A stretch of 64,000 nt of DNA from a virus: positions 1 through 64,000 of IMG/VR virus record IMGVR_UViG_3300036790_000408; one strand, given 5' to 3'. Position 1 is the first letter of the stretch. Every line of letters begins with the position of its first letter. Made by a program: the position numbers and the translations under genes. Shown one piece after another: positions 18,645-19,690 of the stretch. The notes under the pieces are model-generated. The model was not told the origin of the DNA. It made no database searches and worked only from the letters and a program-made list of their open reading frames with translations.

Positions 18645-18911
18645 GCGGCATGCCTTCCCGAGCCGCAACTGCCTTACCTAACGCCGCCAAGCCTCAACAA
18701 ACCCTCCGTATCTTAACTGCCGACCATCCGAAACGGAGCGTGCCGCACCTAACCAAATCCACAACTGCCATACCAATCAATCGTAACGAATCGTGCCAGA
18801 CCCTAACGCAACGATCCACGCCTCGACAGGCCTCATGTTGAACTGCCATGCCAGAACTCACCCGACCATTCCGGATGAAGCTGCGCCGAGCCCAAACTTT
18901 CCAGAACTGTC
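18645..18911 (-). repeat. left GGCAGTT-(GGY-NN)n pentamer array, 5 units
   Basis: AACTGCC on the plus strand at 18667, 18715, 18763 and 18841, variant AACTGTC at 18905; 5-nt GG periodicity between anchors. Confidence 0.8.
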
Positions 18912-19089
18912 TGATCTCATCATGATGTGACGGCGACAGATCGTTTGATTATTTGCGTCGCCGTCCCGGTGGGCGTTTGGTTTGTTGTGGCGGAGATGGA
19001 GCGATTTCACCGCTTTCCATCTGCCCTATTTCGATGTCGATTTCTTCAAGTTTCTCGGTCAACCATTGTCCTATGGACTGATCTGGTCC

Positions 19090-19690
19090 GTTTGGGCACG
19101 GCGTGACATGGCAGTTGTGGCGAGGTGGGTTGATGGGTTGTTGTGGCCTGGTGAGGCAGTTGGGGCCTGGTTGGGTGCGGTGCTGCCTGGGCTGGTACGG
19201 CGCGGTATGGCAATTCAGATAGGACTTGGGACGACCTTGGGATAGGTGACGTCTGGGAGTTCAGATCGGGCCGTTGTGGTTCGTCCGGTTGGGCCGGGTG
19301 CGTTCCGGTGTTGAGGATAAGGCAGTGTAACGCCGGGCACGGCAGTTGAGGATAGAATGCCTTGGTTTCTCGGGCCAAGGTCAGGTCAGTCTGGGCAGTT
19401 GTGGAATGATGAGGCATCGTGAGTTACGGCCGGGTTCGGCGCCGCGTGAGAGGTCTGGCAAGATAAGGCAGTTATGGTGCGGCGCTAGCCAGGACGTATG
19501 GGGTATGGTTTGGCGCCATCTCGGCAGTTCAGGCGCGGCCCGCGAGGGCCAGGAGAGTCATGGCGAGGACGGGCATGGCAGTTCACATGGGGTGCGTTCA
19601 GGCATGAACAGGAAAGGCCTGGAGTGTTCGGGTCAGGCAGTTGCGGTATGGACAGATGGAGTGTGGTTTAGCTTGGTGACGCATCTAAGG
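19090..19690 (+). repeat. right GGCAGTT-(GGY-NN)n pentamer array, about 11 units
   Basis: GGCAGTT at 19110, 19155, 19341, 19394, 19467, 19523, 19577 and 19636; variants at 19209, 19255 and 19321; example GGCAGTT gg GGC ct GGT tg GGT gc GGT gc TGC ct GGG ct GGT ac GGC gc GGT at. Confidence 0.85.

Follow-up and report, generated by a model that had tools for sequence, protein, structure and literature searches.

We report two opposed, pentamer-periodic arrays in a soil phage genome which are, with high probability, vrRNA arrays of the VIPR type, orphaned by the loss of vipr and of the 5′ three-quarters of vap. They lie in a stretch of 64 kb (here called the window) that forms the first part of the 134,436-bp record IMGVR_UViG_3300036790_000408, a genome that has direct terminal repeats and is rated 100% complete by CheckV. 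The sole public run holding window DNA is a soil DNA metagenome, and the phage proteins closest to those of this genome belong to Sinorhizobium, Agrobacterium, Ruegeria and Paracoccus phages, which points to alphaproteobacterial-phage affinities.

The first description of VIPR (Viral Interference Programmable Repeat) dates only from 2026, and most of what is known of its natural history comes from phages of enterobacteria. According to the two preprints that describe it (10.64898/2026.04.26.720920 and 10.64898/2026.04.26.720927), Vipr is a small RAMP-like protein whose vrRNAs are built of YNNGG repeats; one Vipr protomer sits on each pentamer, so that GGY is hidden and NN presented; double-stranded DNA is read by successive NN pairs, each separated from the next by one unread base, and the target is silenced. 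The locus described here is VIPR-null with orphan arrays, a kind already published, in October 2026, for phages of the SUSP1 family. Effector loss with retention of the guide arrays, as this locus shows, recurs outside that family.

The two arms and their pentamer grammar

The arrays fill about 1.1 kb without a credible gene, between a 109-aa ORF of unassigned function (18209-18538, minus strand), which lies downstream of the left arm and whose only database match is itself, and the gene for a RusA-like resolvase (19668-20129, minus strand; PHROG match), a conserved right flank that served as our handle for finding relatives. An Rfam search of 14-22 kb returned no family, a tRNA search found none close to the arrays, and megablast of window positions 12-30 kb against 50,697 phage records gave no match.

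It had been predicted from the letters alone that this stretch has a 5-nt period, in which GG(Y) alternates with variable NN dinucleotides, and that such a period is incompatible with protein coding. Both statements were borne out. Autocorrelation in the two arms was 0.39-0.40 at lag 5 and 0.35-0.38 at lag 10, against about 0.25 at other lags, and lag 3 was depleted. A sliding periodicity scan peaked at 18628-18969 (z 6.0-6.3) and 19020-19728 (z 5.4-5.7), and all other positions of the 64-kb window and of the whole 134-kb genome stayed at or below z 3.8; the 5-nt periodicity of the two arms is unique within the 134,436-bp genome. Pentamer tiling by dynamic programming scored 108 in the right arm (shuffles, 49.8 ± 6.7) and 56.9 in the left (shuffles, 14.7 ± 4.9), about 8.7 standard deviations over shuffles in either arm. 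When tiled with slips, 87 of the 146 pentamers ended in GG, and 88% of the GG-ending pentamers started with a pyrimidine. The VIPR preprint defines an array by at least four tandem YNNGG repeats; one perfect run of four is present here (19161-19180), together with six runs of three. The NN strings are different in every unit and the GG phase is held within units, so that a conserved GGY alternates with hypervariable NN. A close relative with homologous array units was sought, and none was found.

The right arm (19110-19690, plus strand), delimited by periodicity, tiling and 11 anchors, carries perfect GGCAGTT anchors at 19110, 19155, 19341, 19394, 19467, 19523, 19577 and 19636 and degenerate ones at 19209 (GGCAATT), 19255 (GGGAGTT) and 19321 (GGCAGTG). 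On the plus strand, GGCAGTT occurs as often within 19110-19642 (eight copies) as in the entire remainder of the window. The left arm (18645-18911, minus strand), recognized by the same features of periodicity, tiling and anchors, has perfect anchors at 18673, 18721, 18769 and 18847 and a degenerate one, GACAGTT, at 18911. It consists of four full units of 64, 78, 48 and 48 nt and a short fifth unit that enters a GC-rich stem-loop (18600-18634, minus strand), with which the arm ends. This structure has a 10-bp stem and no U-tract, folds at -37.9 kcal/mol (z -2.8 versus shuffles), and may be a terminator or a 3′ stabiliser. Over both arms, 12 of 16 anchors are perfect 7-mers. The earlier count of five units reading leftward and eleven rightward was right; unit lengths span 45-78 nt, with some 15 units in total.

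Punctuated arrays and their Vipr and Vap partners

An IMG/VR pattern scan for three GGCAGTT anchors spaced 38-66 nt apart gave, among 120 matches listed, 23 G-rich, 5-periodic arrays. The clean ones share one grammar, ...YNNGG CAGT TNNGG (YNNGG)n..., and every unit measures 5n+4 nt (49, 54, 59 up to 79) because the 4-nt CAGT is inserted between pentamers. The window arrays would follow the same plan, a continuous YNNGG run in which CAGT every 8-15 pentamers marks the unit boundaries. The spacing of 9+5n pointed out in the original prediction has its explanation in this grammar and equals the canonical rule of the array type, but only 4 of 14 window units keep to it. The CAGT punctuation rule makes this type of array easily found by pattern.

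Of the 23 loci, 19 have a homologue of the SUSP1 Vipr next to the array and in the same orientation (phmmer E values of 7e-14 to 1e-4); a 20th has a cut Vipr C-terminus at the contig edge, and the remainder are cut at contig ends or doubtful. The Vipr proteins of these loci are 190-310 aa long, and a profile (A1) of twelve of them matches PDB entry 36pp, “SUSP1 Vipr protein” (E 5e-14), as well as 8,060 cluster representatives. Beside vipr, in 13 IMG/VR loci, stands a second conserved protein with the motif LHxxFEWDD...QAR, which is the clade's Vap. In PHROG, Vipr falls under phrog_4652 and Vap under phrog_15946, each listed as “unknown function.” Judging by this association with Vipr and Vap, we take GGCAGTT-punctuated pentamer arrays to be genuine VIPR guide arrays. 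The link of GGY/NN arrays to a Cas7/RAMP-like VIPR protein, which the original prediction had offered, is confirmed by these 19 loci and by the presence of Vipr in a syntenic relative of the window phage (see below). None of the approximately 20 evaluable IMG/VR loci was an orphan array, and orphan arrays of the GGCAGTT type look rare.

The reference locus, that of Escherichia phage SUSP1 (PDB 36pp), encodes Vipr (195 aa) and vap1 (146 aa), and its YNNGG runs are clean and carry tails. The window arrays have in common with it tandem YNNGG repeats, a conserved GG(Y), hypervariable NN, carriage on a phage and the absence of self-targets, and relatives encode a Vipr homologous to the solved SUSP1 protein. 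However, each SUSP1 vrRNA is a distinct RNA of about 100 nt that bears a tail of some 40 nt, whereas the window units abut with CAGT alone between them; above all, vipr is absent from the window and vap is a stub. The VIPR type of the window clade may also differ from that of SUSP1, since the clade's Vap (phrog_15946) has no detectable similarity to SUSP1 vap1.

In clean arrays (those of L088, L022, L076 and other loci) CAGT is a 4-nt insertion among otherwise regular pentamers, and the starts of the SUSP1 vrRNA tails (GTAGTT, GCAGTA) are similar to it. CAGT may be a minimal tail or a processing mark. The VIPR preprint mentions “staggered” vrRNA arrays in its Fig. S18, and, as far as that mention goes, the CAGT punctuation may be the same architecture.

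Outside the viral collection, a GGCAGTT pattern scan of genome contigs gave no periodic array among the matches listed; these were chance matches, CRISPR-like repeats and coding repeats that lacked pentamer periodicity. Vipr was found in 2 of 401 sampled Alphaproteobacteria genomes, and the short periodic tracts of these two genomes are not GGCAGT punctuated. Both phrog_4652 and phrog_15946 match the Caulobacter vibrioides control genome at a loose threshold (E ≤ 10). These matches may be noise; were they real, a model alphaproteobacterium with a VIPR locus would be at hand.

Loss of vipr and the vap remnant

Homologues of the RusA-like protein with 86% and 71% identity (P0153 and P0154) were found in Logan contigs; the same homologue search of IMG/VR gave no useful relatives. 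The contig with the 71% identical RusA, L246 (16 kb), is syntenic with the window for a 130-aa gene, a GcrA-like gene, RusA, DUF1376 and DnaB. Between RusA and the replication genes it carries, in one orientation throughout, an array of 10 perfect GGCAGTT anchors, vipr (291 aa; E 5e-43), vap (189 aa) and a second array of seven perfect anchors, which abuts the 3′ end of RusA. The right arm of the window converges on the 3′ end of its RusA-like gene just as this downstream array does, with the RusA homology junction at 19690. A search of metagenome contigs for homologues of the L246 Vap found no further loci. The window arrays are equal in quality to those of this VIPR-positive relative: GG-ending pentamers make up 62-65% in the window and 68-70% in L246, a pyrimidine occupies position 1 in 88% and 85-88%, respectively, and phase slips and long units with lost anchors are common to both.

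L243, the closer relative by RusA (86% identity), lacks both arrays and vipr at this site. Its DUF1376-to-RusA stretch holds a pRha-like gene and genes for proteins of 158 and 325 aa; in L246 the same stretch holds a pRha-like gene and the full VIPR locus, and in the window (13900-19690) it holds the region of a 457-aa protein, small ORFs and the orphan VIPR arrays. As the stretch differs in all three, it is a variable island.

No vipr was detected in the complete 134,436-bp genome when six frames were searched with the twelve-sequence profile (A1). Local Vipr profiles of 19 and 166 sequences, phrog_4652, tblastn with the L246 Vipr and a Vipr motif scan likewise gave no match on this genome, and no Vipr came to light when all frames of 17.3-19.8 kb were scanned for peptides as short as 20 aa. 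A phmmer search of all genome ORFs with SUSP1 Vipr and vap1 gave only noise.

What remains of the protein-coding part of the locus is the 3′ end of vap, at 18949-19083 on the minus strand. This pseudogene remnant retains the last 44 or so codons and the native stop (18949-18951) and lacks a start codon and the 5′ part. By tblastn, residues 145-186 of the L246 Vap align to 19077-18952 (minus strand) with 55% identity (E 4e-8); in a pairwise blastp comparison, the remnant is 67% identical to the L246 Vap over 24 aa (E 1e-9), after which come a basic, Pro-rich tail resembling that of L246 and then the stop codon. Searches of this genome with phrog_15946 and a Vap profile found nothing beyond the remnant. 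The original prediction had placed a central spacer between the arms; this is neither a neutral spacer nor a leader but, by its homology, the vap stub, by which a bidirectional leader at the centre is ruled out. The homology to vap ends in a rearrangement junction at 19084-19109, and the opposed right arm starts at 19110. A separately assembled Logan contig of the source run, built from the same reads, is identical across both junctions at a depth of 16, and an assembly artefact is thereby ruled out, though from the same reads.

Relative to VIPR-positive L246, vipr and most of vap were lost by deletion and the vrRNA arrays kept. The ancestor would have resembled L246 in having array, vipr, vap and array on a single strand, flanked by the replication module and RusA. 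The upstream array, vipr and the 5′ part of vap would then have been lost, and an inversion would have moved the 3′ end of vap together with the proximal part of the downstream array, the latter becoming the left arm, while the RusA-proximal part of that array kept its original orientation as the right arm. It is the truncated vap and the opposed arms that lead us to a deletion of vipr and 5′ vap plus an inversion, and the left arm comes after the vap stub, on its strand, just as L246 has its downstream array after vap. We infer the order and number of these events. The vap stub is about as similar to L246 as are the intact flanking genes, and the deletion may be recent.

The second guide-RNA system that had been predicted for this stretch is thus only half there: the arrays are of the VIPR vrRNA type, but the complete genome has no vipr and, of vap, only the 3′ end, so that neither of the two genes of a complete VIPR system is present intact. 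The RAMP-like gene to be expected beside such arrays was found next to arrays of the same punctuation in L246 and the 19 IMG/VR loci, and no search detected it in this genome.

Possible use in trans or decay, and target searches

Because the phage makes no Vipr, the arrays could act only in trans. According to a later preprint (10.64898/2026.10.15.759431), VIPR-null phages and satellites carry solo vrRNAs that make use of a rival's Vipr. As in those phages, vipr and vap are lost here and the vrRNA genes kept, and a VIPR-positive relative with the same RNA punctuation exists, which makes hijacking in trans conceivable. The published cases are SUSP1-like phages of Enterobacteriaceae and F5 satellites, with one or two solo vrRNAs and a clean 1,114-bp deletion (10.64898/2026.10.15.759431), whereas ours, a soil phage of 134 kb, carries about 15 units, split between two opposed arrays, and shows an inversion and a vap stub; in addition, predicted targets on vipr, vrRNAs, satellites or repeats were sought here and none was found. 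Orphan or mini CRISPR arrays and solitary phage-borne repeat units resemble the window arrays insofar as they too are effector-less guide or repeat RNAs on a mobile element that depend on another's effector, but their repeat grammar, protein family and recognition code are unrelated.

We give close to an even chance to the view that the window arrays act in trans on another element's Vipr. By analogy with the solo vrRNAs, they may serve the Vipr of a co-infecting or resident VIPR-positive relative with the same GGCAGT punctuation; their transcripts would be processed at CAGT and loaded onto that protein, and the units would then be hijacked guides or decoys. A more far-reaching version, which we put forward tentatively, is that the 15 or so orphan guides have been selected as a weapon or decoy and load onto the Vipr of VIPR-positive relatives, such as the L246 phage, during co-infection. 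If so, loaded guides would redirect a rival's Vipr against a third party, or drain it, and the “guns for hire” principle would no longer be confined to the SUSP1 phages of enterobacteria and to single solo vrRNAs, but would apply to soil phages and to entire arrays. Bolder still is the idea that RNA-guided systems replace one another at the site between the replication module and RusA, and that a putative TIGR-Tas-like module displaced VIPR there. In any event, L246 and the window phage form a natural soil-phage pair, the one VIPR positive and the other VIPR null with a vap stub, and the locus supplies 15 natural guides, with cognate Vipr and Vap, for testing hijackers against decoys and debris.

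The most serious alternative, which we consider quite possible but short of even, is that a VIPR locus was recently destroyed and the arrays are what it left behind, a relic without function, transcription or use and bound to decay. Besides the absent vipr and truncated vap, several observations fit such a relic. Sigma-70-like promoter prediction over 18540-19700 found no site within or between the arms; the inversion severed the right arm from the upstream operon that would have driven it, leaving it without an evident driver; and 3 of the 11 right-arm units have phase slips and degenerate anchors. On the other side, the left arm has the RusA/GcrA-like operon upstream of it on its own strand, could possibly be reached by read-through from that operon, and ends in a strong stem-loop; 12 of the 16 anchors are still perfect; the GG and Y statistics are indistinguishable from those of the VIPR-positive L246 arrays; and the published solo vrRNAs are functional. 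About a third of the pentamers lack GG, which speaks against orphan guides used in trans, though the arrays of L246 are equally loose. The deletion may be recent, with too little time for decay to show, in which case array integrity would be uninformative on selection.

The relic reading also draws on the target searches, which came back empty. Under the NN-x rule, the guides had no match above shuffled guides in their own genome, an absence of self-targets that is as expected of real guides, nor in 2 Mb of fetched loci together with L243 and L246. Against the 16 kb of L246, including vipr, vap and arrays, the window guides had no significant match, and the L246 guides had none on this phage. 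Four guides (R2, R9, L1 and R10), scanned exactly against IMG/VR, had 0 hits. Among the window guides only R2 had an exact NN-x match, and that a single one (20 of 20), at L249:1938-1966 in metagenome contig Ga0315282_10031508, within a small ORF between genes for a GMC oxidoreductase and a GDSL lipase; the contig also has a glycosyltransferase gene. We reject this as a target, for the contig is cellular, no second guide matches there, and one match is at chance level for a GC-rich 20-base pattern. A control guide from the VIPR-positive locus L088 had one exact match in IMG/VR (L250), which lends weak support to the search method. Concatenating the NN pairs into gapped patterns, the check that had been proposed for targets, gave nothing above the shuffled level in the phage itself, the fetched loci or the relatives. 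The further idea that each unit is a guide stands in part: by descent each would be a vrRNA whose NN pairs would spell a gapped target, but the target searches have been empty.

It is very unlikely that the system is complete in cis, with the arrays served by a divergent RAMP-like or other RNA-binding phage protein such as the 457-aa neighbour or one of the small ORFs at 17485-18538. Several neighbouring ORFs do lack a family assignment, and RAMP proteins are known to diverge past sequence recognition. However, arrays with the same punctuation have a readily detected Vipr (E 5e-43 in L246), and a cognate Vipr should be detectable; the vap fragment tells us that the cognate operon was physically destroyed; and the nearby small ORFs, at 104-116 aa, are well below the 190-310 aa of Vipr. 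Least credible of all is that the arrays are not guide RNAs but a G-rich minisatellite, a G-quadruplex or protein-binding DNA element or a Gly-rich coding repeat: GG at each fifth base on one strand could build two-tetrad quadruplexes, but the 5-nt period with its depleted lag 3 rules out coding, the NN positions differ in each unit, and vipr and vap accompany arrays of this grammar at about 20 independent loci as well as in syntenic L246, a Vipr association that would seem largely to refute any non-guide reading.

Some minor observations concern the surroundings of the arrays. The 457-aa protein, in the region 15096-17430, had no match among Pfam families and PDB sequences, and its one PHROG match is C-terminal, to “transposase.” The same region contains a 46-nt sequence in two nearly identical copies (16589 and 17168), besides short, weaker repeats; ARAGORN called no tRNA in it. 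Relative to L243, approximately 14150-17430 of the window is an insertion. Farther upstream, the DnaB of L246 matches the DnaB-like helicase of the window (10592-13048) in two blocks about 1 kb apart (10634-11260 and 12278-13021), an arrangement consistent with an intein in the window protein.
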